The notes: a model not told the origin generated them from the sequence alone. Numbered from the stretch's first letter, positions 48,025 through 61,083 are shown. The stretch: DNA of 64,000 nucleotides from Cyclobacterium sp. (GCF_014762705.1 NZ_JABURL010000049.1:621-64620); one strand, 5' to 3'. Program-made: numbers and translations.

Positions 48025-48492
48025 CTAATTCCCAAGTTTATAAACAAAATTTCTAACATCCACCACCTTGAGCAAATCTTGGATACCCGGGAACCTGGGA
48101 TTGACCAACAGGTTGTGTTCTTCCGGGTAAAAAGAGATATGCAACCGGGCTGATGGAACCTTTAAAAATGGAAACCTATTTTCTATCAGCCACAGTTTGC
48201 CGAAATCTTGTGTTGCTTTGTTATGTGGCAGCATGTCCCAGTTCTGTGGAAGGCTTTCCTTTTCAAGCGTACCAATCAGTTCACTTTCAAGGATTTCATA
48301 AATAACCACATACCATGATCCAAAAGTGGTAGAAGTACCTTTGATACAAAGGTATTCCAAAGCCGCCAACGCCGCCGAACTACCGGTGTAAATCATAGGA
48401 TAAGCCTTGGGATTCCACCTTCCCCCTGACAAAGAACTGCTGAAAGGCTCCCGGTGGTATTTTTCCGACATCATGCGGTAATAGGTAAACAT
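48025..48492 (-). CDS. RES domain toxin (NAD+-degrading RES family)
   Basis: GGRWNPKAYPMIYTGSS.ALAALEYL carries the R and E of the RES signature. The 155-aa gene lies 2 nt downstream of an Xre/DUF2384 antitoxin gene. Confidence 0.8.
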   Translation of the reverse strand: MFTYYRMMSEKYHREPFSSSLSGGRWNPKAYPMIYTGSSAALAALEYLCIKGTSTTFGSWYVVIYEILESELIGTLEKESLPQNWDMLPHNKATQDFGKLWLIENRFPFLKVPSARLHISFYPEEHNLLVNPRFPGIQDLLKVVDVRNFVYKLGN

Positions 48493-48494
48493 GC

Positions 48495-49034
48495 CTACAT
48501 GACATTTCCAAAGTGAAGGGCATCTATGGCCTCATGTACCAGGTCTATCCCCGTCATGGATACCATTAGGACCACAGGTTTGGCTTGACCTAAAGCCATA
48601 TTTGGCGTATTCAGCCAGGATTTTAAGCTGGATTCCCGACCAAAAATATCCATCCCCTTTTTGATCACTTCGTCCATTTTGAAAAACTGGTAGGAACCTG
48701 GTATCCCGATTTTACTGTCAGCAGACCACCTGGAGACAGTGCTTTGGGAAACAGCTGCCGCTTTGGCCAAATCAACCATTTTAAGCTCCAAAAAATCAAT
48801 AATCGGGGCAATCTCAGCATAAGTCAGTTTATCTTCCAGCTTTTGACCCACCTCAGTCAAACTCTTTGCAAATTTAAAAGCCTTTAAGAAATAACCATAC
48901 CCGTCCTTGACCTCATAACTGACTTGCTGGTCTCCCTTTTTGACCACAAAGGTATCAGAAATGCCATAAGGCTTTTCATAATCTCTGATATGGTCTTCAG
49001 TCCTAAAGGTTTTATATGTCTTGCTTTTTTTCAT
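48495..49034 (-). CDS. Xre/MbcA/ParS-type antitoxin (HTH + DUF2384 toxin-binding domain)
   Basis: HTH region (LAKAAAVSQSTVSRW) and C-terminal WLNTPNMALGQAKPV....G.D.V...IDAL.FG, the DUF2384 signature. Confidence 0.8.
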   Translation of the reverse strand: MKKSKTYKTFRTEDHIRDYEKPYGISDTFVVKKGDQQVSYEVKDGYGYFLKAFKFAKSLTEVGQKLEDKLTYAEIAPIIDFLELKMVDLAKAAAVSQSTVSRWSADSKIGIPGSYQFFKMDEVIKKGMDIFGRESSLKSWLNTPNMALGQAKPVVLMVSMTGIDLVHEAIDALHFGNVM

Positions 49035-49421: not shown

Positions 49422-50657
49422 CTACTCCCAACCCTTAACCTCACTACTCCGCCGATTGCCCGACTCATCCACCCAGTAGATATACCAAAGTCTGGCATCT
49501 GAAGGAATAGTGACCGTACCTTTGGCTGTATCAAGTGGTACAAGTTTCCACTCCCTTTCCGGACTCTTTTTGTCCTCTGTGGTGTAAGCGAGGTAAACTT
49601 CTTTTGGAGCAGGAGTAGTCGAATACCTGGCCTGACTCCCCTTTTGTTTCAATTTAATTGAATTAATAAATTCGGTTTTATTTTCCAGTTGGGTACTGAT
49701 AAAACGGTAAATCTCCCCGGGTTCTGCTCCGTGTAAATGGCTATGTTTCAGTTCCGGTATCATGGAATACTGTGCATTTCTGGCCAGATTGGCTGTTTTT
49801 TGCCAATTTTCAACGAAATAGGCAAAATCATTGGTACCATTAACAAAAAGCATGGGTACGGTTGCATTGGCCACATAACTGGAAGGATCCCAAAGTTCGA
49901 CCCAGCGCTGGGTAGCATCAGCTCCCAAGGAATCAAACTGATTGTCCCAGGCACTACCTTCGTGAAGATAGCCAGCGCCATACACAGGCACGGCAGCGCT
50001 AAATCGGTGATCTACTCCTGCTACCAGATTGGTCAGGTATCCGCCCCAGCTGATGCCAGTGATGGCTGTCTTATGCGGGTTTACTTCTGGAAAGGAACGG
50101 ATCAGGGAATGCGCACGGATAATATTCGATACGGAATGGAATTGCCACTGCGCGTTAAAATCCTCATCCAATCGGAAAAACTTGTGCCCATCGTCCTGTT
50201 TAGGTCCTCCGGCCTCGAGTCGGGTACCTTTGGAACCCCAGGGGTTGTCCTGCTGATTGCTGGGTATATTTCCGCTCAGGTCCATGGCGATAGCGGCATA
50301 TCCCCTTTCGGCCCATTCCAATGCCCAGATTCGAAAAGCCGTTCCTCCCCCACCGTGAACCAGTACGATGCCGGGATACTCCCCGGTTCCCGGATTTTTT
50401 TCACCCAATGTGGCCGGGCTGGCATAATAAGCGAATACTTCCGTCACCTTCCCTTCATATGCTTCACCGGTATAGGTCAGCGACCAGACCGAGTCAGTCT
50501 GGTTTACCCACTTAAAGTCCGGGGCTACAGACAAAGTCTCTAGTCCCCAGGGAATGCGGCCCTCCAGGGCCGGAGGAGGCATAATTCCGGTTTGGGCAAT
50601 AATAACAAGTCCCCTCAAAAAAAACAACGTTAAGCCGGTTAAAAGAGTGTTTTTCAT
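49422..50657 (-). CDS. secreted alpha/beta hydrolase (acetylxylan esterase / dienelactone hydrolase-like), copy A
   Basis: Signal peptide, HGGGG oxyanion region and a GISWGG nucleophile elbow. It is a paralogue of 58631..59863. Confidence 0.75.
   Translation of the reverse strand: MKNTLLTGLTLFFLRGLVIIAQTGIMPPPALEGRIPWGLETLSVAPDFKWVNQTDSVWSLTYTGEAYEGKVTEVFAYYASPATLGEKNPGTGEYPGIVLVHGGGGTAFRIWALEWAERGYAAIAMDLSGNIPSNQQDNPWGSKGTRLEAGGPKQDDGHKFFRLDEDFNAQWQFHSVSNIIRAHSLIRSFPEVNPHKTAITGISWGGYLTNLVAGVDHRFSAAVPVYGAGYLHEGSAWDNQFDSLGADATQRWVELWDPSSYVANATVPMLFVNGTNDFAYFVENWQKTANLARNAQYSMIPELKHSHLHGAEPGEIYRFISTQLENKTEFINSIKLKQKGSQARYSTTPAPKEVYLAYTTEDKKSPEREWKLVPLDTAKGTVTIPSDARLWYIYWVDESGNRRSSEVKGWE
49673..50319. 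repeat. 647-bp block 100% identical to 58882..59528 (direct repeat, offset 9209)
   Basis: I compared the two copies line by line and found every base identical across the block. Flanking parts of the two paralogues are only roughly 80-85% identical by eye. Confidence 0.9.
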
Positions 50658-50878
50658 GCTGCTAATGATTTATTTTATATTTCTATTTTCAGATCACCTG
50701 CCAATTCCATCTACAAAACATTTACCCCTGTAATTTACAATCAACAAGGAAGTTATAAAATTACTCACAGGATAGCAGTAAGTTATATACCCTTATGGCG
50801 GGCAGCAAACTACTTTTAGTATTGATCCAAAGATTATCAATAACTCTAGGCAAAAAAATCTCTTTCCACCTAGGCACC

Positions 50879-51382
50879 TTAACATAATGCAAATACCAAC
50901 TTTTCAATATCTTCGTTATCAACCTTGTAAGATTTCAGACCTCTTTTCATAACATCAATAAATATTAATTTTTCAGATTTATCAGGCTCCAAAGTGTTAA
51001 AATCTTCAATTGCATGTTTCCAAGCTGATATCTCCGATGTTGGAGTCTCTAACTCAATTTTATCATTGTCTTTATCTGCTATATGTCCAAATTCATGTAA
51101 TAGAATTGTCATAAACTCAGTATCTTCAAAATCAACAACATTTACAAACAATGACAGCGGCTTCTTCGGTTCCGCATCTTTATCCCAAACTATTTTTCCA
51201 CCAAAACTTATCTTATTCTGAATAATTGCGTCTCTGCTGCTTACTGGGACTATGCTTAATTCAAGTGACAATAACCAGTCAATTTTCTCAATAAGAAGGT
51301 CTTCGTATCGAACTTTATTTTTTAATTTACTTTTAAATTCTCTTATTAGGTTGTTTTTTTTACGTTCGAAGGCTACAGTCAT
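50879..51382 (-). CDS. small putative zinc metallopeptidase (HExxH)
   Basis: 167-aa ORF with TILLHEFGHIADKD (HExxH). No signal peptide. AT-rich island context. Confidence 0.45.
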   Translation of the reverse strand: MTVAFERKKNNLIREFKSKLKNKVRYEDLLIEKIDWLLSLELSIVPVSSRDAIIQNKISFGGKIVWDKDAEPKKPLSLFVNVVDFEDTEFMTILLHEFGHIADKDNDKIELETPTSEISAWKHAIEDFNTLEPDKSEKLIFIDVMKRGLKSYKVDNEDIEKLVFALC

Positions 51383-51894: not shown

Positions 51895-53793
51895 TCATCC
51901 ATAATTTTGTTTGTTTGGTTCTGCTACTCTAGTTAAGTCATCTTCAATTAATTCATCTGGTTTGCTTAATCCGTAATATCTTCTTAATAATCGTTCTGGA
52001 TCACTTGACTCCAGCAACAAATCTTTTTCCTCTTCTGAAAGCTCACAGATTCCGAAATTTTTAATATAGTTTTTGCTCATTGATATATACCCGGACGAGT
52101 AGTCTTTGGTTATACTCTTTATGTAACCAAAGAATATATCTGATTCCATTATTCTCTTTAAAACTCTTAGCTCTCTAAGTGAATCAGACACTACCGCTAT
52201 TCCACTATAAAATAGCAATTTTTTATCTTTTGAAATTGTGAAAGTAGGACGTTCACTTAGGTGAGGAAAGAATAATTTGTATGAGTTAATATCAAGGGAC
52301 TGTCTACGGCCATATGCATACCATTTTTCGTATTCTCTTTGTCCTTTATCACGTGTGCTTAAAATCTCCCTATTACCGCACAAGTATTGGTAAGTATGAG
52401 GATATAATTCCTGAAAAACCTGTTCTTCTAGAATCAATATCTCCCTTTCGCTTTGCGTATAGGGAAAGATTATTTTCTCATTGTTAACCAATATATCCTC
52501 TTCACTTCTTGCTTTATTGGGGTTAACAATGTCACGACATATATCCTTTTCTATTTTATAGACCGATCCATTTTTGGTCTTTAATAAAAAATATCTATCA
52601 TCTTCTCCGAAAGGAAAAAACTTATAAATGTCATTTTTCAATGTTGCAATTCCGTTTCTTGTGGTATAGACGTCTTTAAATGGACGACCAACAGCCTCGA
52701 TTTTATTAACGTATTCAAGCTGATCCTTTGAATCAACCAAATTCCATCCATCATGATCGTGAAGTGTATCGTATTCGTAAGAAATGAACATTGAATCCTT
52801 GATCGATTCTATGCTATCAGGTGTTGCCTTTTTATATTTGATTTTACCTGCACTATTCTTTAAAAAACAAATGCATGTATATGTGCTACGGTTTTTGAAA
52901 ATTTGCTCTCCTCCAAAGTTGATTATTTTCAAGTCAACCTTGTTCCTGGAAAAATATTCTCTCAGTGATCTGCCATTGACACTTTTTATGAAAGTGTTTA
53001 CAGTTATAAACCCCAGAATTCCATCGGCTTTTAAGCTTTCAAATCCCAACTGAAAAAATGGAATATATAAGTCCGGATGACCACTTTTAGTAACCTCCCA
53101 ATTATCAATTAAATCAAGTGATTCCTGATCCATATTGCGAGAACATACATATGGCGGATTACCTAGAACTATGTCAAATCCACTAAAATCGGATGGATAA
53201 TCGCTCCAATCGAAGCTTAAAGCATTTCCTTTAAATAGGTTAAAATCAAATGACTCTTCATCTTCTCCTTCCGAAATTGCAAGAAGGCTAAGTAAGATTT
53301 TAGATCTTTCAATTGAAAATTCTTCAATATCTAAACCAAATAACTGGTTTCTAAATATTTCACTGAAAGGTCTTCCAGTAACATTATTCAACAGCTTTGC
53401 GCAAGACAGTAAAAAGGCTGAGCAACCACATGCAGGATCACATATTTTTATGTTTTCACGCTCTTTTTTATTCGATCTGAGAGACTCATTAATAATGTAA
53501 TCCCTAATGTATTTTGGTGTGTAAATTGCTCCATTTACTATCTTCTCTTCAGGAGATATTACGAACTCAAACAGTTCAATCAGCTGCTCAAAGTTATCGA
53601 GTATTTGTAAAGTATTGAACTCTTTTAGTGCTTCAAAATCTGCATCCTTACGCTGAATAAGTAAATTTTTGATAAACTTATTTTTAACTATTTTAATATC
53701 TTTTTGATACAAAAAGGATGATACGATCAAGCGGTTGATCTTTAAAGGATCAAAGGAATATGTACTGAGATATGAAAATACTTCCTTTTTCAT
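51895..53793 (-). CDS. Eco57I/type IIG-like gamma-class N6-adenine DNA methyltransferase (no nuclease domain)
   Basis: Motif X GAIYTPKYI, motif I CDPACGCSAFLL and motif IV LGNPPYV, followed by about 300 aa of TRD-like region. The ATG at 53793 forms an ATGA overlap with the upstream gene's stop. Confidence 0.8.
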   Translation of the reverse strand: MKKEVFSYLSTYSFDPLKINRLIVSSFLYQKDIKIVKNKFIKNLLIQRKDADFEALKEFNTLQILDNFEQLIELFEFVISPEEKIVNGAIYTPKYIRDYIINESLRSNKKERENIKICDPACGCSAFLLSCAKLLNNVTGRPFSEIFRNQLFGLDIEEFSIERSKILLSLLAISEGEDEESFDFNLFKGNALSFDWSDYPSDFSGFDIVLGNPPYVCSRNMDQESLDLIDNWEVTKSGHPDLYIPFFQLGFESLKADGILGFITVNTFIKSVNGRSLREYFSRNKVDLKIINFGGEQIFKNRSTYTCICFLKNSAGKIKYKKATPDSIESIKDSMFISYEYDTLHDHDGWNLVDSKDQLEYVNKIEAVGRPFKDVYTTRNGIATLKNDIYKFFPFGEDDRYFLLKTKNGSVYKIEKDICRDIVNPNKARSEEDILVNNEKIIFPYTQSEREILILEEQVFQELYPHTYQYLCGNREILSTRDKGQREYEKWYAYGRRQSLDINSYKLFFPHLSERPTFTISKDKKLLFYSGIAVVSDSLRELRVLKRIMESDIFFGYIKSITKDYSSGYISMSKNYIKNFGICELSEEEKDLLLESSDPERLLRRYYGLSKPDELIEDDLTRVAEPNKQNYG

Positions 53794-54542
53794 ATTAACT
53801 GGGGAAATATATCTTTTGCACTCCAACTGTTTGCCACATTTGTCTCAAATCCAAAATGTCTAGAGAGGCTACAGTAATATGGTTTGAGTATGAGCTCTTG
53901 AGAATGTCTCAGGAGTTTTATAAATCTTTGCTCACTTCTCAATTTTTTATGAATTCCCGGGCAAAAGTTTGATGTAACAAAGTCAATCCCAAGTATTAAA
54001 TCCATAGGATAGTGCTTTAACCTTGGACTTCCCATGAATAATGAGCTGCCGAAATTCTCCCCTGGCACTGATTTTAACCTGTGACCGCCTACATGAATAT
54101 GATATGCAGGGTGGACTTCATCTGATTGACTATTTTCAGGCTGTCGATCTAGGTGAAAGCAAAGAATGTGTTTAACATCTCTTTTAGTAAGTCCTTCAAT
54201 TGTAAGATTGAACTCAAGCAGTTGAAAAGGATTAAAGTCTAATTTGTTTTCTCTAAATTCTGCCTTGACGTCTATATCCAATGTAACCTTAATGCTTTTT
54301 AGTTTTCCTTCTTTAGGGTATTGTATCCCACTAATTGGTTCTTGTCTAAATACAAGATTTTTGACTCTATAACCCCAACTCGTAGGGGTTGCTAGTGGCA
54401 GGTCATTCTCGTTTTTTAAACTTGTTACTGCAGTTGTTATAGGGCTGGAATCAATAGTTAGCTTAGCCAATATTTCAGAGAGCACTTTGTACTGATTAGC
54501 CAAATTGATTCTGAATTTTTTATTTGATTGATCAATAGTCAT
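53790..54542 (-). CDS. hypothetical protein (250 aa), member of the coupled operon
   Basis: Coding-like ORF with ATGA overlaps at both ends. I recognised no motif. There is a His-rich stretch HPAYHIHVGGH. Confidence 0.6.
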   Translation of the reverse strand: MTIDQSNKKFRINLANQYKVLSEILAKLTIDSSPITTAVTSLKNENDLPLATPTSWGYRVKNLVFRQEPISGIQYPKEGKLKSIKVTLDIDVKAEFRENKLDFNPFQLLEFNLTIEGLTKRDVKHILCFHLDRQPENSQSDEVHPAYHIHVGGHRLKSVPGENFGSSLFMGSPRLKHYPMDLILGIDFVTSNFCPGIHKKLRSEQRFIKLLRHSQELILKPYYCSLSRHFGFETNVANSWSAKDIFPQLI

Positions 54543-55627
54543 TTGCTCAAACTTTCTGAATCTTGCTTAAGTCGCTCTTCATCTAGAGGATGCACTTCGA
54601 TTCCTTCCTTTTGAGCTTTTCTTCCTACAAAGGAAATCAGTGAAGCATAGGAATATTCCTGCCAAGGTTTAGGCTCCTCTCTCATATTTATCCGATAGCC
54701 TTCAAAAGGGTCTAAAGGATTTTTTGAAACTTGACATATTGTCCAAAAATCTGTACTCGAATTCAATTCTTCAGGGCTAGCGCTGACTATATTATTTAGT
54801 CTTAGTGATTGTTTAATAGCATCTACCCTTTCTTTCGCATTTAACACTGCCAATGACTTACCCGTAATCTTTTCAAAAGTTTCCACGATTAAATCTGACC
54901 ACCATCTAGGCCAACATTCCGAAAACACTCCCCTATATTTTTGATCATTGAATGTTTCGAATACTTTTTTGGTATCAGCTGATTTGGCTATGTCGATACC
55001 AAGCCTAGCTGCCAAAATGTTTTCATCTACTAATAATCCAATTGGTTGAACTAGGTCTTTAAAGATTACTCTAGCTATTTCATGCGAAGGAGGAGTTGAT
55101 TTCTTACTCATGAATCTTGAAAATACTCGTTCATCAATTTCAGAGACCTTCCTTTTTAAAATTTCTTCAAAATCACCTTTTTTATCGACAATAAGAGAAT
55201 ACCCGTTGCACATGCAAATTATCTTTTCAATTGTCTCGTCGTTTATGTCCTTTTTAAGGAAAGTCCAATCAAACAGATTATGGCTCGTGAAATCTTTGTC
55301 ATAAGTCTCTTTGATTCTAGCTTCCGTGGAACAGAGAATAATTGGTATATCTTTAATCTTTCCCTCAGTTGCGTAGGTCCTAATTGTCTGGGCTATAGTC
55401 GGTGCTTGATATTTTACTTGCTTCCCGTCTTCTTGAGGGCCATTCAATTGAAGGTCTAAAAGTAACCCATCATAATGACTCAGGCTATCTAACAAATTAC
55501 CAACCTCTGATTCATAGAAATCAGGTTTGTCCCATTTGATTTCAAGTTTGCCAGTGGATTCTAACTTTCTCTTTATTGGCAGAACAAGATCATCTTTTTC
55601 ATCATCTAGGTAGAGTATCTTTTTCAT
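54539..55627 (-). CDS. receiver (REC) domain protein with an uncharacterised ~230-aa C-terminal domain
   Basis: The N-terminus has KILYLDDEKDD (acidic pocket), GLLLDLQL (candidate phospho-acceptor Asp) and IPIILCST (conserved Ser/Thr position). The C-terminal two thirds carry no motif I recognise. Confidence 0.6.
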   Translation of the reverse strand: MKKILYLDDEKDDLVLPIKRKLESTGKLEIKWDKPDFYESEVGNLLDSLSHYDGLLLDLQLNGPQEDGKQVKYQAPTIAQTIRTYATEGKIKDIPIILCSTEARIKETYDKDFTSHNLFDWTFLKKDINDETIEKIICMCNGYSLIVDKKGDFEEILKRKVSEIDERVFSRFMSKKSTPPSHEIARVIFKDLVQPIGLLVDENILAARLGIDIAKSADTKKVFETFNDQKYRGVFSECWPRWWSDLIVETFEKITGKSLAVLNAKERVDAIKQSLRLNNIVSASPEELNSSTDFWTICQVSKNPLDPFEGYRINMREEPKPWQEYSYASLISFVGRKAQKEGIEVHPLDEERLKQDSESLSK

Positions 55628-57912
55628 TTTTCATCAAGTTTTGGAAGCTCTATTCTTATTGTCGTATTACACCCGTTAGAAGGATTATCTACCAAGACAT
55701 CCCCCCCGTATCCTTCAACTATATCTTTAATTATTTTGAGTCCTAAACCTGTTCCTGTTAATTCTTCAATTTCGTTGGAGGACTTTCCTGTTGGAGGACT
55801 TGTTGTGAAGAAAGCTTCGAAAACATGTTCACGATCTTTCTCTGGTATTCCTATTCCATTATCTGAAAAAGTGAAAAATATTTTACCGTTTTCAATGCCT
55901 CCTTCAATATAAATAATTCCCTTACGTCCTGTTTTTGAAATGGCTTTCTTAGAGTTAGTATACAGATTAAATAGTATTGATGACCATTCAGATTTATGCA
56001 TAGGACAAGTAAACAGGTTGTAGCCTTTGAACTCATACTTTAGTTCTATACCATTTCTAAGCAAATCAGGAGTAATAGCATTTTCAAAATCAAATACAAC
56101 ATCTCTTATTTCAATTGGCTCTAATTCTCTATTGATGTTATTTGATATTGCCTCTTTGAAGTAAGAAGTGTACACTGTTAGAGACTCAAGGTTCTTACTT
56201 AGTCTTAATCCAGCTTTTTTCCCATCTTCAGATTCAATTAGCGATAATAAAAATTCGGTATCATATTTAAATGCCGGTTCATAATGACCGATTTCATGTA
56301 CGAACTCCCCAATTGTCAACCCAAGCCCAGCCAATATTCTTAACAATTGAATTTCTCTCAGTAATTCCTGTTTATCTCTTTCAGCTTGCGACTGTTCCTC
56401 CTGCTGTGTTTCTTGATATTCATTTAGCTTTTGATCCACGGATTTCAACTTAACCGAGATATTTCCTTCACTATCTTTTGAAACGCTATCGAAAATTTGG
56501 CTGTCGGCTGTCTCTATCAATTCGCTGACATCCTTTTTAACATCTTGTAATAATTCTTTGGAAGACTTCTTTTCCCATTCTTTTTGACCCGCAGTTCCTT
56601 TTCTCTCCCTGATATGAGAAATTTTAATGGTCATATCTGTAAGTGCCTTGTAGACAAAATCTTGTAATTCTCCTAAGGATTGATTTATTAATAATCCTTC
56701 CCTACTCGATTGCTCCTGAAACATTTCACCTTTTGGGTCAACAACCTCAACAAATCCAAAGAAGTTGATATTACCGTGTGGAGTTATCAATGAATTTCGT
56801 CTTACCGATGCGTCTAGCCCAATCCAATCATCATCTTTTTGCCCATAAGGTGGTACTCTGAATCCATTTCGGTAAAGCTTAATTCCTCCATTTTTCCGAG
56901 CATTTCCGAGTATGTATGAGTTAACTGATTTTGGTAAATAGGAAGATTTGTTCGAGTTATAAATAAAGTAATGAGCCTTTAAATGGATGTTTTTAAGAGA
57001 TTCAAATGGGGTTTCTCTTTCTGATTTACCTATGAGATAAACTTCCTCGGCAATATTTAATTTATCACTGCTAAATCCGTAATATCCTTGACCATTTTCG
57101 TCTACGTACGCCTCAATGTCAGCAAGTGCATGCTGGAAAAATTCACTTTGATCATCAATTATCAATTCACCGTTTCTAAATATTGACACAAGGAATCCAG
57201 AATCATTTTCACTTTTTGAAAGTCTTTCGGATAGTGGATATGGTTGTAGCAACTCAGAAACATATCTAAATGATCTTCTAAGCATCGCTTCTGACCAACC
57301 ATCTCGTACTTTTTCAATAATTAGGGTTGTGCCTTCATCTTTTTGTTTTTGAATCTCTTTAACTTGATTTGAAATTAAAATCAGGTTGCTATCCATCTCG
57401 TATTGATTCCAATTAACAACCAATTTAAGAGCCATATTTGACTCCTTGGTCTGTGTGATAATTGTTAGTACCTCGCCAATTCTCTGTGTAGCAAATCGAC
57501 CTATTCCCTTCTGTCCAGCCCTGACTCGATTAAATTTTGGAGATTTTGGATTATGGATTTTATCACTCGATGAGATGGTCATGAAACCTTTGACAAGTTG
57601 ATCACGAGTCATACCATGTCCATCATCTTCAATTGTTAATTTTCCACCAGGTGTGAAACAATTCTCGAAGTACAAATCCACCTTTGTTGCATCAGCATCA
57701 TAAGCATTTTTGACTAATTCAGCGACTGCCGTTTCATGACGACCAACTAATTCGCGACCCAGCCGATTAATTACCCCAGCATCTACTGAGAATCTAATAT
57801 TTTGATTATCAAATGAGGAGAGTAAGGAGGAGAGTTCTAAAATCCTATTATAATTATTAGGCTCCTTTTGAAGTGTGTCCTCCAGAAGTTTCCTTACTTC
57901 AACCTCAGTCAT
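55624..57912 (-). CDS. cytoplasmic fusion of a MORC/MutL-type GHKL ATPase and a histidine-kinase core (DHp + CA)
   Basis: N-terminal half: AELVKNAYDADATKV, IEDDGHGMT and GQKGIGRFA (Bergerat fold, HATPase_c_3-like). Middle: coiled coil followed by an H-box, GEFVHEIGHYEP. C-terminal half: NLYTNSKKA, SDNGIGIP, VFEAFFTT and GTGLGLKI (N, G1, F and G2 boxes). No TM helix. The start at 57912 overlaps the HTH stop by 8 nt. Confidence 0.7.
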   Translation of the reverse strand: MTEVEVRKLLEDTLQKEPNNYNRILELSSLLSSFDNQNIRFSVDAGVINRLGRELVGRHETAVAELVKNAYDADATKVDLYFENCFTPGGKLTIEDDGHGMTRDQLVKGFMTISSSDKIHNPKSPKFNRVRAGQKGIGRFATQRIGEVLTIITQTKESNMALKLVVNWNQYEMDSNLILISNQVKEIQKQKDEGTTLIIEKVRDGWSEAMLRRSFRYVSELLQPYPLSERLSKSENDSGFLVSIFRNGELIIDDQSEFFQHALADIEAYVDENGQGYYGFSSDKLNIAEEVYLIGKSERETPFESLKNIHLKAHYFIYNSNKSSYLPKSVNSYILGNARKNGGIKLYRNGFRVPPYGQKDDDWIGLDASVRRNSLITPHGNINFFGFVEVVDPKGEMFQEQSSREGLLINQSLGELQDFVYKALTDMTIKISHIRERKGTAGQKEWEKKSSKELLQDVKKDVSELIETADSQIFDSVSKDSEGNISVKLKSVDQKLNEYQETQQEEQSQAERDKQELLREIQLLRILAGLGLTIGEFVHEIGHYEPAFKYDTEFLLSLIESEDGKKAGLRLSKNLESLTVYTSYFKEAISNNINRELEPIEIRDVVFDFENAITPDLLRNGIELKYEFKGYNLFTCPMHKSEWSSILFNLYTNSKKAISKTGRKGIIYIEGGIENGKIFFTFSDNGIGIPEKDREHVFEAFFTTSPPTGKSSNEIEELTGTGLGLKIIKDIVEGYGGDVLVDNPSNGCNTTIRIELPKLDEK

Positions 57913-58114
57913 TTGAATTAACTTTATTTGAAACAATTAATTCCTTGACATCTAAATCAAGTATATCAGCAATCGTATTCAAGTCTTCGAGAATAGGTTG
58001 GCTTCTATTCTGAACATATGAATTCGTAATGGTATAGCTCTTTCCAAGCTTTTCCGACAGCCACGTTTGCGTGATTCCTTTTTCTTCAAGAACAGCTTTT
58101 ATTCGATTCATCAT
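57905..58114 (-). CDS. XRE family helix-turn-helix transcriptional regulator
   Basis: The 69-aa sequence IKAVLEEKGITQTWLSEKLGKSYTITNSYVQN.SQP is the classic Cro/C1 HTH. It is the first gene of the operon. Confidence 0.85.
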   Translation of the reverse strand: MMNRIKAVLEEKGITQTWLSEKLGKSYTITNSYVQNRSQPILEDLNTIADILDLDVKELIVSNKVNSND

Positions 58115-58153
58115 CGTTAAATTTAAAAAGATTGGAAGTTAGTAATATTGTAT

Positions 58154-58163
58154 AGATATATCT
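58154..58163. promoter_or_regulatory. perfect 10-bp palindrome AGATATATCT upstream of the XRE gene (candidate operator)
   Basis: It lies 40-49 nt upstream of the XRE start codon in the AT-rich leader. The operator function is inferred only. Confidence 0.25.
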
Positions 58164-58630: not shown

Positions 58631-59863
58631 TTACTCCCACCCCTTCACCTCACTACTCCTTCGATTGCCCGATTCATCTATCCAGTAGATATACCATAAA
58701 TTAGCTTTTGCAGGTATGCTTACACGGCCTTTGGTTTGTTCCAGCGGTACGATTTTCCACTCCCTTTCCGGACTCCGTTTGTCCTCTGTGGTGTATGCAA
58801 GGTAAACGTCTTTCGGAGAAGGAGCAATCGAATACCTGGCCTGACTCCCCTTTTGTTTCAGCTTAATTGAACTAATAAAATCGGTTTTATTTTCCAGTTG
58901 GGTACTGATAAAACGGTAAATCTCCCCGGGTTCTGCTCCGTGTAAATGGCTATGTTTCAGTTCCGGTATCATGGAATACTGTGCATTTCTGGCCAGATTG
59001 GCTGTTTTTTGCCAATTTTCAACGAAATAGGCAAAATCATTGGTACCATTAACAAAAAGCATGGGTACGGTTGCATTGGCCACATAACTGGAAGGATCCC
59101 AAAGTTCGACCCAGCGCTGGGTAGCATCAGCTCCCAAGGAATCAAACTGATTGTCCCAGGCACTACCTTCGTGAAGATAGCCAGCGCCATACACAGGCAC
59201 GGCAGCGCTAAATCGGTGATCTACTCCTGCTACCAGATTGGTCAGGTATCCGCCCCAGCTGATGCCAGTGATGGCTGTCTTATGCGGGTTTACTTCTGGA
59301 AAGGAACGGATCAGGGAATGCGCACGGATAATATTCGATACGGAATGGAATTGCCACTGCGCGTTAAAATCCTCATCCAATCGGAAAAACTTGTGCCCAT
59401 CGTCCTGTTTAGGTCCTCCGGCCTCGAGTCGGGTACCTTTGGAACCCCAGGGGTTGTCCTGCTGATTGCTGGGTATATTTCCGCTCAGGTCCATGGCGAT
59501 AGCGGCATATCCCCTTTCGGCCCATTCCTGCGCCCATATTCGGAAGGCCGTCCCTCCCCCACCATGAACCAGTACGATGCCCGGAAACTCCCCGGTCTCT
59601 GTATTTTGTTCACCCAATGTTGCCGGACTGGCATAATAGGCAAATACCTCCGTCACCTTTCCTTCATAAACCTCACCGGTATAGATCAGTGATCGGACCG
59701 GTGAGGTTTGATTGATCCATTTAAATTCTGGTGCTTCCGATAATTTCTCCAAATCCCAGGGAATACGTCCCTCCAATGCCGGTGGTAAGGAAAGCCCGGT
59801 TTGGGCAGTGACCAGGCCTTGTAAAAGAAAGAGAGCTAAGCAGATCTGAATCAGTTTTTTCAT
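58631..59863 (-). CDS. secreted alpha/beta hydrolase (acetylxylan esterase / dienelactone hydrolase-like), copy B
   Basis: Same motifs as copy A. The signal peptide and C-terminal third have diverged, and the central part is identical. Confidence 0.75.
   Translation of the reverse strand: MKKLIQICLALFLLQGLVTAQTGLSLPPALEGRIPWDLEKLSEAPEFKWINQTSPVRSLIYTGEVYEGKVTEVFAYYASPATLGEQNTETGEFPGIVLVHGGGGTAFRIWAQEWAERGYAAIAMDLSGNIPSNQQDNPWGSKGTRLEAGGPKQDDGHKFFRLDEDFNAQWQFHSVSNIIRAHSLIRSFPEVNPHKTAITGISWGGYLTNLVAGVDHRFSAAVPVYGAGYLHEGSAWDNQFDSLGADATQRWVELWDPSSYVANATVPMLFVNGTNDFAYFVENWQKTANLARNAQYSMIPELKHSHLHGAEPGEIYRFISTQLENKTDFISSIKLKQKGSQARYSIAPSPKDVYLAYTTEDKRSPEREWKIVPLEQTKGRVSIPAKANLWYIYWIDESGNRRSSEVKGWE
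58882..59528. repeat. 647-bp block 100% identical to 49673..50319
   Basis: See the partner repeat at 49673..50319. Weaker homology extends from about 58409 to about 59900 (partner about 49200 to about 50700). Confidence 0.9.
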
Positions 59864-59942: not shown

Positions 59943-60467
59943 TCACTCATCTTCCCCCTCACCTAACCCACTCAAAAAGTCATCTATTGATTTGGTGTTT
60001 CTTCTTTTCTCCTCAGGGGTCATATTCTTATATTTCGCCATAGTCTTGTTCAGCTCTTCAAGTTGCGCTGCTATTTCCTCCTGGTCAAAAGAGAAAAATG
60101 TCATTTCATACAGGCAATGGGCAATGATTTCCAATTCCGTAAACTCCTTAAATGCACGCTCATCCACCTTCATGCCAAGCCAACTGTTCCAGGGAGTAAA
60201 TTCAAGGGCCAATCCATCGTTTCCAGATAACGGATCCACGCTTCCATCAGCGTGGTACCCATCTACATCCACATAATTTTCATCTTCTTCCCTGATTTCA
60301 ATCAGCCGGATGACAATATCGCTGGAAGGATCAGGTTTCATTTCCATTAGCTGGTTGAACACCTCTCTATATGCATCGATCTGCTCTTCCTGATCTGGAT
60401 ATAGCCTATTTAATTCTGTTTCAATGCTTAGCCAGTGTTGCCTTCGGATCAATTCGTGAAATGTCAT
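59943..60467 (-). CDS. hypothetical acidic cytoplasmic protein
   Basis: 174-aa coding-like ORF with no motif I recognise. Confidence 0.5.
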   Translation of the reverse strand: MTFHELIRRQHWLSIETELNRLYPDQEEQIDAYREVFNQLMEMKPDPSSDIVIRLIEIREEDENYVDVDGYHADGSVDPLSGNDGLALEFTPWNSWLGMKVDERAFKEFTELEIIAHCLYEMTFFSFDQEEIAAQLEELNKTMAKYKNMTPEEKRRNTKSIDDFLSGLGEGEDE

Positions 60468-60648: not shown

Positions 60649-61008
60649 TTATCGTTCCAAATACTCCCCTATCACCCTTAACACCCCTAAGATATCTTCC
60701 CTCACCTCCCTATTCTCAAAGCGCAACACCCGGATACCACATAATGTAAGGGCGGAATCCCTTTCCAAATCTGATTGATGTCCTTCTTGCGTATAATGTG
60801 GTGACCCGTCCAGCTCCACGGCAAGTTTCTCCTCCGGACAGTAAAAATCCAAGATAAAATCCCCGTAGCTGTGCTGCCTCCTAAACTTCTTACCCTTTAG
60901 ACGCCTTCCTTTTAATTGTAGCCAAAGTAGCTGTTCCTCTTTCGTGGAATTGTTACGCAGGTCTTTTCGGGTTTCTTTTAGTGATTTTTTATTGTTGAGT
61001 CTTGCCAT
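60649..61008 (-). CDS. DUF559 (Vsr-like) endonuclease domain protein
   Basis: EEQLLWLQLKGRRLKGKKFRRQHSYGDFILDFYCPEEKLAVELDG..H is the DUF559 signature. I prefer the ATG at 61008 (MARLNNKK). Confidence 0.8.
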   Translation of the reverse strand: MARLNNKKSLKETRKDLRNNSTKEEQLLWLQLKGRRLKGKKFRRQHSYGDFILDFYCPEEKLAVELDGSPHYTQEGHQSDLERDSALTLCGIRVLRFENREVREDILGVLRVIGEYLER

Positions 61009-61083
61009 GGCTGAAAAAAGAATTGAATTTTCTTTATTAAATTTTATTAATCCTCCCCTCCATGTTTCCACCACCCCCTTATT

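Follow-up and report, generated by a model that had tools for sequence, protein, structure and literature searches.

The only tested relative of the locus described here is Ambrosia, a system of P. aeruginosa with validated anti-phage activity that consists of AbrR (XRE), AbrA (N6 methyltransferase), AbrB (HATPase kinase), AbrC (receiver) and AbrD (HNH), loses its protective effect when conserved positions in any one of its predicted functional domains are point-mutated or when the receiver carries D60A, and has been reported only from Gammaproteobacteria (van den Berg et al. 2025 preprint, 10.1101/2025.09.30.679545). Here we analyze a five-gene operon at positions 51,895-58,163, all on the minus strand, of a 64,000-nucleotide (nt) stretch of DNA from Cyclobacterium sp. 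(the window), and conclude that it is probably a modification-linked defence cassette of the kind represented by Ambrosia and by paraMORC-kinase proteins. A preliminary description made from the sequence had put the operon forward as a candidate new defence system; as stated, that claim is not supported, since the architecture was described in 2021 (PMC8011034) and the five-gene Ambrosia defence in a 2025 preprint (10.1101/2025.09.30.679545). A HATPase/REC system that is predicted and unvalidated is also depicted in a figure of the DefensePredictor paper. The cassette is widely transferred and is a relative of Ambrosia, not a wholly new kind of system. New in the window variant are a long receiver with a new output domain, a family of 250-amino-acid (aa) proteins replacing the HNH protein, and marking by an Eco57I-type methyltransferase or by SspBCD.

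Comparative genomics had earlier revealed soluble HATPase_c_3 + DHp + HATPase_c proteins encoded beside divergent receivers, with 91.6% linkage (Bellieny-Rabelo et al. 2021, PMC8011034). These HEF_HK/Response_reg_2 pairs are enriched near type II restriction-modification (R-M) genes, mainly those for C5 methylases, Vsr and HNH_2, and a paraMORC relation was proposed for them (PMC8011034). The window cassette has the same soluble kinase architecture with a His-Glu pair (H539-E540), an adjacent divergent receiver and linkage to R-M genes, whereas the HEF_HK set is mostly proteobacterial and C5-linked, comes without a described partner resembling the 250-aa protein of the window (orf250), and is known from comparative genomics only (PMC8011034). 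The window proteins have no match to PF19191 (HEF_HK) or PF19192 (Response_reg_2) at E<=10, a negative result that is uninformative because plasmid-borne relatives fitting the published architecture are equally without a match; the models may be narrow. The paraMORC GHKL ATPases themselves were placed in R-M operons (Iyer, Abhiman and Aravind 2008, PMC2292703). Like the paraMORC/BbrUII/HgiDII proteins, the window kinase has an N-terminal GHKL ATPase with intact motifs and shares its operon with a DNA methylase; proteins of the paraMORC/HgiDII type, however, carry or are linked to nucleases and superfamily 2 (SF2) helicases, in place of which the window has a histidine kinase (HK) core and a receiver partner. 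The paraMORC type is marked by a GHKL domain with intact ATP-binding motifs and a following S5-type transducer domain, in an R-M operon; the window kinase shares the GHKL motifs, which are invariant, and the R-M context.

Classical R-M, BREX, DISARM and Detocs had already been set aside in the preliminary description, in agreement with the lack of PADLOC matches to the components of those systems. No type II R-M endonuclease partner was recognizable among the cassette proteins by sequence searches, and no gene of BREX (PglZ, BrxC/PglY, BrxL) or DISARM (DrmA, DrmB, DrmC) was found in the operon or in the low-GC island that contains it, the catalytic core of the methyltransferase giving only partial matches to PglX/DrmMI. 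For MADS (mad1-mad8), PADLOC (4e-19) and NCBIfam (0.084) gave only a partial match of mad2 to the core of the methyltransferase, and other mad genes are absent. Detocs, a phage defence composed of the kinase DtcA, the buffer receiver DtcB and the receiver-PNP effector DtcC, shares with the window cassette a cytoplasmic His-Asp phosphorelay, but it has no DNA-modification enzyme and its kinase has a different sensor domain; no window protein matched a Detocs component in PADLOC, and the cassette has one receiver protein only and no PNP domain. The Ssp (SspABCD-SspE/SspFGH) and DndABCDE-DndFGH systems follow the same logic as the window cassette, combining a marking module with an exchangeable restriction module. 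The window, however, is without ssp genes and uses an N6-methyladenine (m6A) methyltransferase, and its trio of kinase, receiver and orf250 has no PADLOC match to SspE, SspFGH or DndFGH.

Organization of the cassette and comparison with Ambrosia

A listing of the open reading frames (ORFs) of the window returned five minus-strand ORFs in the order XRE, kinase, receiver, orf250 and methyltransferase, exactly where the preliminary description had located them. For the kinase and the receiver protein, NCBI has Cyclobacterium entries that are 100% identical. The tightly coupled unit proposed there was recovered with all of its overlaps: an 8-nt stop/start overlap, ATGACTGA, at 57905-57912 joins XRE and kinase, and ATGA overlaps were read from the sequence at 55624-55627, 54539-54542 and 53790-53793. 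The ATG starts, not longer TTG alternatives, match the N-termini of homologues, and a hydropathy scan detected no transmembrane-like segment in any cassette protein. The earlier domain assignments were likewise correct, namely an XRE protein, a GHKL ATPase joined to an HK core, a receiver, a 250-aa protein without a recognizable motif, and an Eco57I-type methyltransferase lacking a nuclease. The genes and their principal domains are as follows.

57905-58114, minus strand: XRE-family helix-turn-helix (HTH) protein, 69 aa (Pfam HTH_26, 2.6e-7, and HTH_3), its stop overlapping the kinase start by 8 nt
55624-57912, minus strand: soluble 762-aa kinase fusion of GHKL ATPase, middle domain, coiled-coil linker and HK core (Pfam, PDB sequence matches, hydropathy)
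57343-57735, minus strand: N-terminal Bergerat-fold ATPase domain of the kinase, aa 60-190 (HATPase_c_3, 1.4e-24)
56683-56895, minus strand: middle-domain motifs YRNGFRVxPYG...DDW.GLD...SREGL, aa 340-410 (invariant alignment columns)
55627-56370, minus strand: HK core (DHp and catalytic ATP-binding domains), ~aa 515-762, with phospho-acceptor His539 at 56296-56298
54539-55627, minus strand: receiver protein, 362 aa, receiver domain followed by a C-terminal output domain
55184-55627, minus strand: divergent CheY-like receiver domain, aa 1-148, with phospho-acceptor Asp58 at 55454-55456
54542-55183, minus strand: C-terminal output domain, aa 149-362 (~210 aa), confidently folded in an AlphaFold2 model
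53790-54542, minus strand: orf250, stand-alone 250-aa protein of a new family, motif core at 54099-54155
51895-53793, minus strand: Eco57I-type gamma-class N6-adenine DNA methyltransferase, 632 aa, with a C-terminal target-recognition region and NPPY at 53149-53160

The window proteins were compared with the Ambrosia sequences in Table S1 of the preprint, AbrB being represented by residues 1-399 only. Ambrosia and the window share a roster of an XRE protein, an N6 methyltransferase, a soluble HATPase_c_3 + HATPase_c kinase, a receiver and one further small protein. Within the available part of AbrB, the kinase aligned at 28% identity (BLASTP, E=5e-36) in an alignment that spans the GHKL domain and the middle domain with its YR..FRV.PYG and REGL motifs. 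The receiver aligns only weakly to AbrC (hhalign, E=0.02, confined to the first 80 residues), and there is no relation between the two C-terminal halves; the receiver Asp, essential in Ambrosia, is invariant in the window family. AbrC has 209 aa, whereas the 362-aa window receiver ends in an unrelated output domain of ~210 aa; AbrA (448 aa) and the 632-aa window methyltransferase of Eco57I type belong to different families and align in motif I only (E=6e-5); and AbrD is an HNH nuclease, to which orf250 has no similarity, the orf250 profile giving no alignment with it. Judging from the coding-sequence numbers of AbrA and AbrD, the methyltransferase gene apparently comes first in Ambrosia, whereas it comes last in the window, and Ambrosia is found in Gammaproteobacteria, the window family mainly in Bacteroidota.

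Conservation of the cassette and exchange of the marking module

Scanning one genome per species revealed 167 loci with kinase relatives, of which 80 were kept and form the basis of the counts given here. The hosts are mostly Bacteroidota, accompanied by Campylobacterota (Sulfurimonas, Arcobacteraceae, Campylobacter concisus), Gammaproteobacteria (Marithrix, Competibacteraceae, Psychrobacter), one Hyphomicrobiales genome (Alphaproteobacteria) and Vallitalea (Bacillota). A receiver homologue follows the kinase in 80/80 loci and an orf250 homologue comes next in 78/80, the remaining two contigs ending earlier; the methyltransferase is next in 76 loci, and neighbouring genes are separated by median distances of -8, -1 and -4 nt. 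Unrelated genomes repeat this gene order with its tight spacing in 76-78 of the 80 loci, which is far more than chance would give. Conservation of gene order across unrelated genomes had been suggested beforehand as a check on the operon, and the result is clear, with the trio present in 78/78 loci of sufficient length, which come from at least five phyla, and the methyltransferase in 76. The ATPase, phospho-His and phospho-Asp residues that were checked are invariant or only conservatively substituted, and the invariance of both ATP sites, His539, Asp58 and NPPY is counted in favour of kinase, receiver and methyltransferase being active enzymes. Strict cross-phylum synteny, invariant catalytic residues and the homology of the kinase to AbrB together uphold the earlier view that a DNA-modification enzyme is coupled here to a His-Asp phosphorelay.

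The surroundings of the cassette, by comparison, vary from locus to locus. Neighbourhoods are unrelated, several loci lie among housekeeping genes, and the cassette is frequently found beside integrases, transposases and other defence genes (a prokaryotic Argonaute on a Hymenobacter plasmid; type I/III R-M). Clustering of 514 flanking ORFs from the 80 loci gave no recurrent partner beyond the core, the commonest cluster being a tyrosine integrase at 8 loci. The housekeeping neighbours, together with the failure to recognize a nuclease and the roles of MutL/MORC relatives in repair and chromatin control (PMC2292703), could be taken to indicate an epigenetic or DNA-repair module without a defence function, one whose MORC/MutL-like ATPase-kinase would report the state of DNA and, by way of the receiver, regulate host genes. 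We regard this as very improbable, the least probable of the readings weighed in this work, given the patchy, horizontally transferred distribution across phyla, the carriage on plasmids, the integrase neighbours and the low-GC island in the window, the linkage to R-M-type methyltransferases or SspBCD, and the proven phage defence of the Ambrosia relative.

Two larger genes seen beside the cassette at individual loci encode a 967-aa large NTPase with only faint NACHT/AAA matches in Pfam and no PADLOC match (Urechidicola, L081, 6082-8985) and a 729-aa protein resembling PbeC/DndD/LmuB (L070, 12683-14872).

The window methyltransferase matches Pfam Eco57I (5e-28), N6_Mtase (1.4e-14) and MmeI_Mtase, and is covered over its full length by the PADLOC model MTase_II PDLC03335 (5.6e-106). 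Motif I (DPACG, aa 119) precedes NPPY (aa 212), 73 homologues all keep D119, G123 and N212-P-P-Y215, and no nuclease domain was found in the protein.

Two complete loci, L070 (Lewinellaceae) and L076 (Chitinophagales), are without a methyltransferase gene. In both, sspB-sspC-sspD lie immediately upstream on the same strand and abut the kinase gene, with PADLOC scores of 1e-100 for SspB, E=0 for SspC and ~1e-90 for SspD. SspBCD carries out phosphorothioate marking and is usually partnered for restriction by SspE or SspFGH (PMC8092258), and in L070 and L076 the trio sits after sspB-sspC-sspD where SspE or SspFGH would be expected. Since SspBCD replaces the methyltransferase at these loci, the trio pairs with two chemically different marking modules, an exchange (m6A methyltransferase or SspBCD) that parallels the restriction partners in Dnd/Ssp and BREX. 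This swap is the strongest evidence for the trio as the 'restriction' half of a modification-linked system. HK genes beside Acinetobacter ssp clusters have been remarked upon without analysis in two papers, in one next to sspE and in the other in nuclease-less clusters (PMC7464106, PMC12421847).

The same loci bear on a more ordinary account of the operon, as type II R-M under a controller protein, in which orf250 would be an unrecognized endonuclease and kinase and receiver a mere regulatory add-on. Restriction endonucleases often escape sequence detection, a type II model derived from REBASE covers the whole methyltransferase, and the overlap of an XRE gene with its downstream neighbour is the classic layout for a C protein. 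Nevertheless, kinase and receiver are never missing, and the Ssp-linked orf250 keeps them and not the methyltransferase; orf250 is seen only with this kinase, its one plasmid match belonging to the same cassette and neither fusions nor other contexts having been found; and the residues of the two ATPase sites and of the phosphorelay do not vary, all of which makes a plain type II R-M system an improbable explanation.

The kinase fusion

At least 120 clusters (90% identity) of full-length kinase homologues share 48-71% identity with the window kinase, a protein whose maximal 19-residue hydropathy is 1.30. When the family profile was compared with PDB sequences, aa 59-124 aligned to MORC3, MutL and Hsp90 and the C-terminal third to the DHp and catalytic ATP-binding core of ZraS (1.2e-14), and aa 645-758 match HATPase_c in Pfam. 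The N-terminal ~170 aa also match NF050001, the NCBIfam BbrUII/HgiDII restriction enzyme family (3e-24), a match confined to residues 2-172 of the HgiDII-family profile, which has 659 residues, and the PADLOC model REase_II PDLC03419.

Invariant in 80 homologues are E65, N69, D72, D96, G98, G100, G133, G136 and G138 of the N-terminal ATPase, and H539, E540, N649, N653, D684, G686, G688, G720, G722 and G724 of the HK core. R404 and E405 in the middle domain are equally invariant, and the middle-domain motifs also occur in AbrB. We propose that these motifs form a transducer-like element in which Arg404 would act as a catalytic-loop residue; the SREGL motif recalls the 'SRE' loop of the Hsp90 middle domain and may correspond to it.

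The receiver protein

Searches of Pfam, NCBIfam, PADLOC and PHROG with the receiver protein gave no match, and the receiver domain is undetected by sequence against PDB or Pfam. Its identity rests on structure: an AlphaFold2 model of the 362-aa protein from a 65-sequence alignment reached a predicted local distance difference test score (pLDDT) of 94.4 and a predicted template modelling score of 0.90, and Foldseek matched the first ~148 aa to the receiver domains of PleD, PhoB, PmrA and Spo0A, with a template modelling score to the target of ~0.7. D58 is conserved in 80/80 loci and D9 in 79/80, and D/E8, S/T100 and K/R125 are conserved as well. The structural comparison recommended in the preliminary description was thereby successful for the receiver domain, recognized as CheY-like, and left the output domain without a match, Foldseek searches of PDB and viral models with the whole-protein model listing receiver-domain matches only.

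The output domain could be aligned neither to the AbrC C-terminus nor to the C-terminal halves of the receivers of plasmid-borne relatives. Along with many invariant Trp residues, it contains an HTH-like helix pair (E202..LAARLG210) and the conserved positions W219, Y231, G233, R241-W-W243 and R267. These are followed by a terminal beta-rich sub-domain in which S291, W295, C298, P304, D306, E/D309, E/D318, K320, W322, Q323, E/D324 and S329 are conserved and which holds a conserved acidic cluster. The pattern P-L-D306...E318-P-K320 resembles PD-(D/E)xK, but K320 is 72% conserved in the 80-locus alignment, and we treat the possible PD-(D/E)xK-like site as a lead only.

The orf250 family and plasmid-borne relatives

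A library of 1.84 billion proteins contains 558 representative clusters of orf250. The 150 clusters listed are mostly 230-280 aa long, with a few shorter fragments and no fusions, and in 78/78 sufficiently long loci the gene lies between receiver and methyltransferase or at the cassette end. Conservation is concentrated in three motifs, H130-x-D132-(R/K)-H, E-x-H144-P145-x-Y147-H148-x-Q and P173-R174-x-x-H177-x-P179, the conserved residues being P76, D104-P105, H130, D132, H144-P145, Y147-H148, P173-R174, H177, P179, N192 and P221. On the strength of this conserved His/Asp/Arg pattern and of the operon position, the most economical reading is that orf250 is an enzyme, and probably the effector.

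Several assignments were considered and rejected. The best-scoring hit, a local match to receptor tyrosine phosphatase sigma (E=0.011), in the N-terminal KNRY / DYINA region, was dismissed since orf250 is without the Cx5R catalytic loop, and spacing or likely secondary structure does not fit a 2-oxoglutarate-Fe(II) oxygenase (HxD...H), HNH/His-Me, PD-(D/E)xK, HEPN or histidine phosphatase. A Pfam scan of 73 family members gave no HNH match.

Beyond the genome loci, orf250 turned up only on plasmid NZ_CP014303 of Hymenobacter sp. PAMC 26628 (L084, 1-4952), which carries a full-length kinase orthologue and the same four-gene cassette in the same order. No orf250 homologue was found in phage records; in these, as in the remaining plasmid records, the kinase is represented by distant relatives only. 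The Hymenobacter cassette adjoins a Piwi-domain (prokaryotic Argonaute-like) gene and a gene for a 1118-aa DNA methyltransferase, a setting resembling a defence island.

Plasmid NZ_OY725905 of Bacteroides finegoldii encodes at 22.6-27.7 kb a kinase (774 aa), a receiver (209 aa), an HNH protein (193 aa) and an Eco57I-type methylase (522 aa), and agrees with the window in gene order, orientation, the two HATPase domains and the Eco57I-type methyltransferase as last gene. Its kinase is 27% identical to that of the window in the N-terminal half only, its receiver is short, and a recognizable HNH endonuclease stands where the window has orf250. Because the B. finegoldii cassette has the gene order of the window, orf250 occupies the nuclease (HNH) slot. 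About 40 Campylobacter plasmid records contain a distant kinase relative. On the C. jejuni conjugative plasmid CP132133 (L086, 5989-10454) the kinase is followed by a 340-aa response regulator, beside a convergent dcm gene and with no separate nuclease gene, and the C-terminal half of the receiver may be the effector in this Campylobacter sub-type; an Enterobacter plasmid encodes a kinase followed by a 357-aa receiver-like protein. The plasmid-borne relatives bridge the window cassette and Ambrosia.

The XRE protein and candidate operators

At least 16/80 loci, and also L081, have an XRE gene immediately ahead of the kinase gene; many other loci have none. Because XRE is present upstream only in some loci, the core of the cassette comprises four genes and XRE is a facultative fifth, probably a C-protein-like controller. 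Upstream of the window XRE gene we noted the following element.

58154-58163, minus strand: candidate XRE operator, a perfect 10-bp palindrome, AGATATATCT, read from the sequence 40 nt upstream of the XRE start codon

Palindromes with ATATCT/AGATAT-like half-sites are also present at L026 and L004, the loci with the closest XRE relatives. In another XRE subgroup (L022, L023, L028, L030, L031, L035, L038, L042 and L047) the palindrome TTGCA-N5-TGCAA is found ~10-30 nt upstream of the XRE start. These palindromes are likely operators that differ between XRE lineages on the same cassette, and AGATATATCT may serve as the operator in the window. A sigma-70 promoter scan gave no more hits than in shuffled sequence.

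Proposed mechanism and its alternatives

In the mechanism that we propose for the window variant, to which we ascribe a defence role from its sequence and relatives, the marking enzyme, here the m6A methyltransferase, would modify resident DNA, and the trio of kinase, receiver and orf250 would constitute the 'restriction' half. The MORC-like N-terminal ATPase of the kinase would engage DNA, and on foreign or wrongly marked DNA its ATP-driven dimerization would activate the fused kinase core. His539 would then be autophosphorylated and the phosphoryl group passed to receiver Asp58, whereupon the receiver C-terminal domain and/or orf250 would be released to act on the invading DNA. As a C-protein-like repressor, XRE would time expression after transfer. 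The full chain from marking through DNA engagement, kinase and receiver to effector is plausible, and we stop slightly short of calling it probable. In this chain the GHKL module would sense DNA, and an effector role of orf250 is suggested by its conserved residues and position.

Gating would be post-translational rather than transcriptional in this scheme. The methyltransferase gene overlaps orf250 and sspD abuts the kinase gene, in each case co-oriented, so that constitutive marking implies constitutive expression of the trio; this coupling of the marking genes to the trio, together with the SspBCD link, which points to standing self-marking, favours post-translational gating. More generally, and more tentatively than the chain itself, the trio may be a general restriction module for m6A or phosphorothioate marks, in which a MORC-like clamp wired to an HK turns engagement of unmarked DNA into a phosphoryl signal that post-translationally licenses the His-rich orf250 and/or the new output domain.

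A number of observations weigh against this interpretation. In Ambrosia, reporter expression at the abrA and abrD positions rises upon infection, AbrA methylation leaves phage sensitive, in that phage from AbrA-expressing cells are unprotected, and the authors favour transcriptional control, possibly with modification-targeting cleavage (10.1101/2025.09.30.679545). Nuclease or other effector chemistry was recognized nowhere in the cassette: orf250 has no match in Pfam, NCBIfam, PADLOC or PHROGs, its profiles (73 and 138 sequences) gave only noise against PDB sequences, an AlphaFold prediction from a two-sequence alignment had a pLDDT of 29 and no usable fold, and the output domain profile matched nothing in PDB. 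Finally, the flank clustering of the 80 loci showed no consistently recurring defence neighbours of the cassette.

The Ambrosia results suggest the main alternative, a logic in which kinase, receiver and XRE control transcription: infection would be sensed, the receiver C-terminal domain would bind DNA and induce the operon, and methyltransferase and orf250 would act together, for instance because orf250 attacks newly modified DNA or because the pair is toxic and aborts infection, so that methylation is no standing self-mark. This is the working model of the only tested relative and has direct experimental support there, and both the HTH-like helix pair E202..LAARLG210 in the window receiver and the presence of XRE with upstream palindromes, which suggests tight transcriptional control, are in keeping with it. 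On the other hand, the output domain is unrelated to that of AbrC and could not be recognized as any known DNA-binding output domain, orf250 has no HNH nuclease similarity, kinase and receiver lie within the translationally coupled operon that they would induce, standing self-marking of the sort known from Ssp systems is indicated by the SspBCD-linked versions, and XRE is missing from most loci. On balance, we consider transcriptional control of this kind rather unlikely for the window family.

If the trio is instead a phosphorelay-gated restriction module, as we prefer, the Ambrosia finding would be extended from Pseudomonas to a larger and more diverse family centred on Bacteroidota, and SspBCD clusters without SspE or SspFGH would gain their missing restriction partner. 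Two new families would be defined, the 250-aa His-rich protein and the 210-aa receiver output domain. The fusion of an ATP cycle to a kinase would also provide a testable case for signalling by MORC/paraMORC ATPases, with a bearing on epigenetic reading by eukaryotic MORC proteins.

The island in the window

The island (~50.66-58.63 kb) has a GC content of 31-37%, vs 41-48% in its flanks. The following genes in and around it complete the picture.

50879-51382, minus strand: orf167, 167 aa, with an HEFGH (HExxH-type) motif and without a family match, between the methyltransferase gene and a hairpin at 50846-50873
48025-49034, minus strand: RES toxin (155 aa, PF08808) and Xre/MbcA/ParS-type antitoxin (179 aa, TIGR02293), a complete pair just beyond the island
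47254-47529, plus strand: Phd/YefM antitoxin gene, then an apparent truncated YoeB-like toxin frame
59943-60467, minus strand: DUF6557 protein (4.5e-54), on the far side of the island
60649-61074, minus strand: DUF559 protein (Vsr-like endonuclease fold), on the far side of the island

The defence-island setting claimed for the operon is supported by the low GC, by the RES-Xre toxin-antitoxin pair and by the Phd/YefM antitoxin; of the DUF559 genes claimed, a single copy was checked and confirmed, no search for further copies having been made.

No terminator was detected directly 3' of the methyltransferase gene, the first terminator-like hairpin (50846-50873) lying beyond orf167. Given its place ahead of this hairpin, orf167 may share the operon transcript; an orf167 homologue was found beside the cassette in 0/80 related loci. 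The YoeB-like frame at ~47.53-47.67 kb on the plus strand reads ...EFTPHGWEDYQFWVKNDPVLTQKINTLI... and then runs into a stop, which suggests that it and the Phd/YefM gene are a decayed toxin-antitoxin pair.

Paralogous alpha/beta-hydrolase genes at 49422-50657 (411 aa) and 58631-59863 (410 aa) flank the low-GC island as direct repeats, sharing 91.4% identity over 1189 nt and matching Peptidase_S9/AXE1/DLH. Either the island was inserted between tandem hydrolase paralogues, or the duplication was tied to acquisition of the island, and recombination between the two hydrolase copies would remove the entire cassette.

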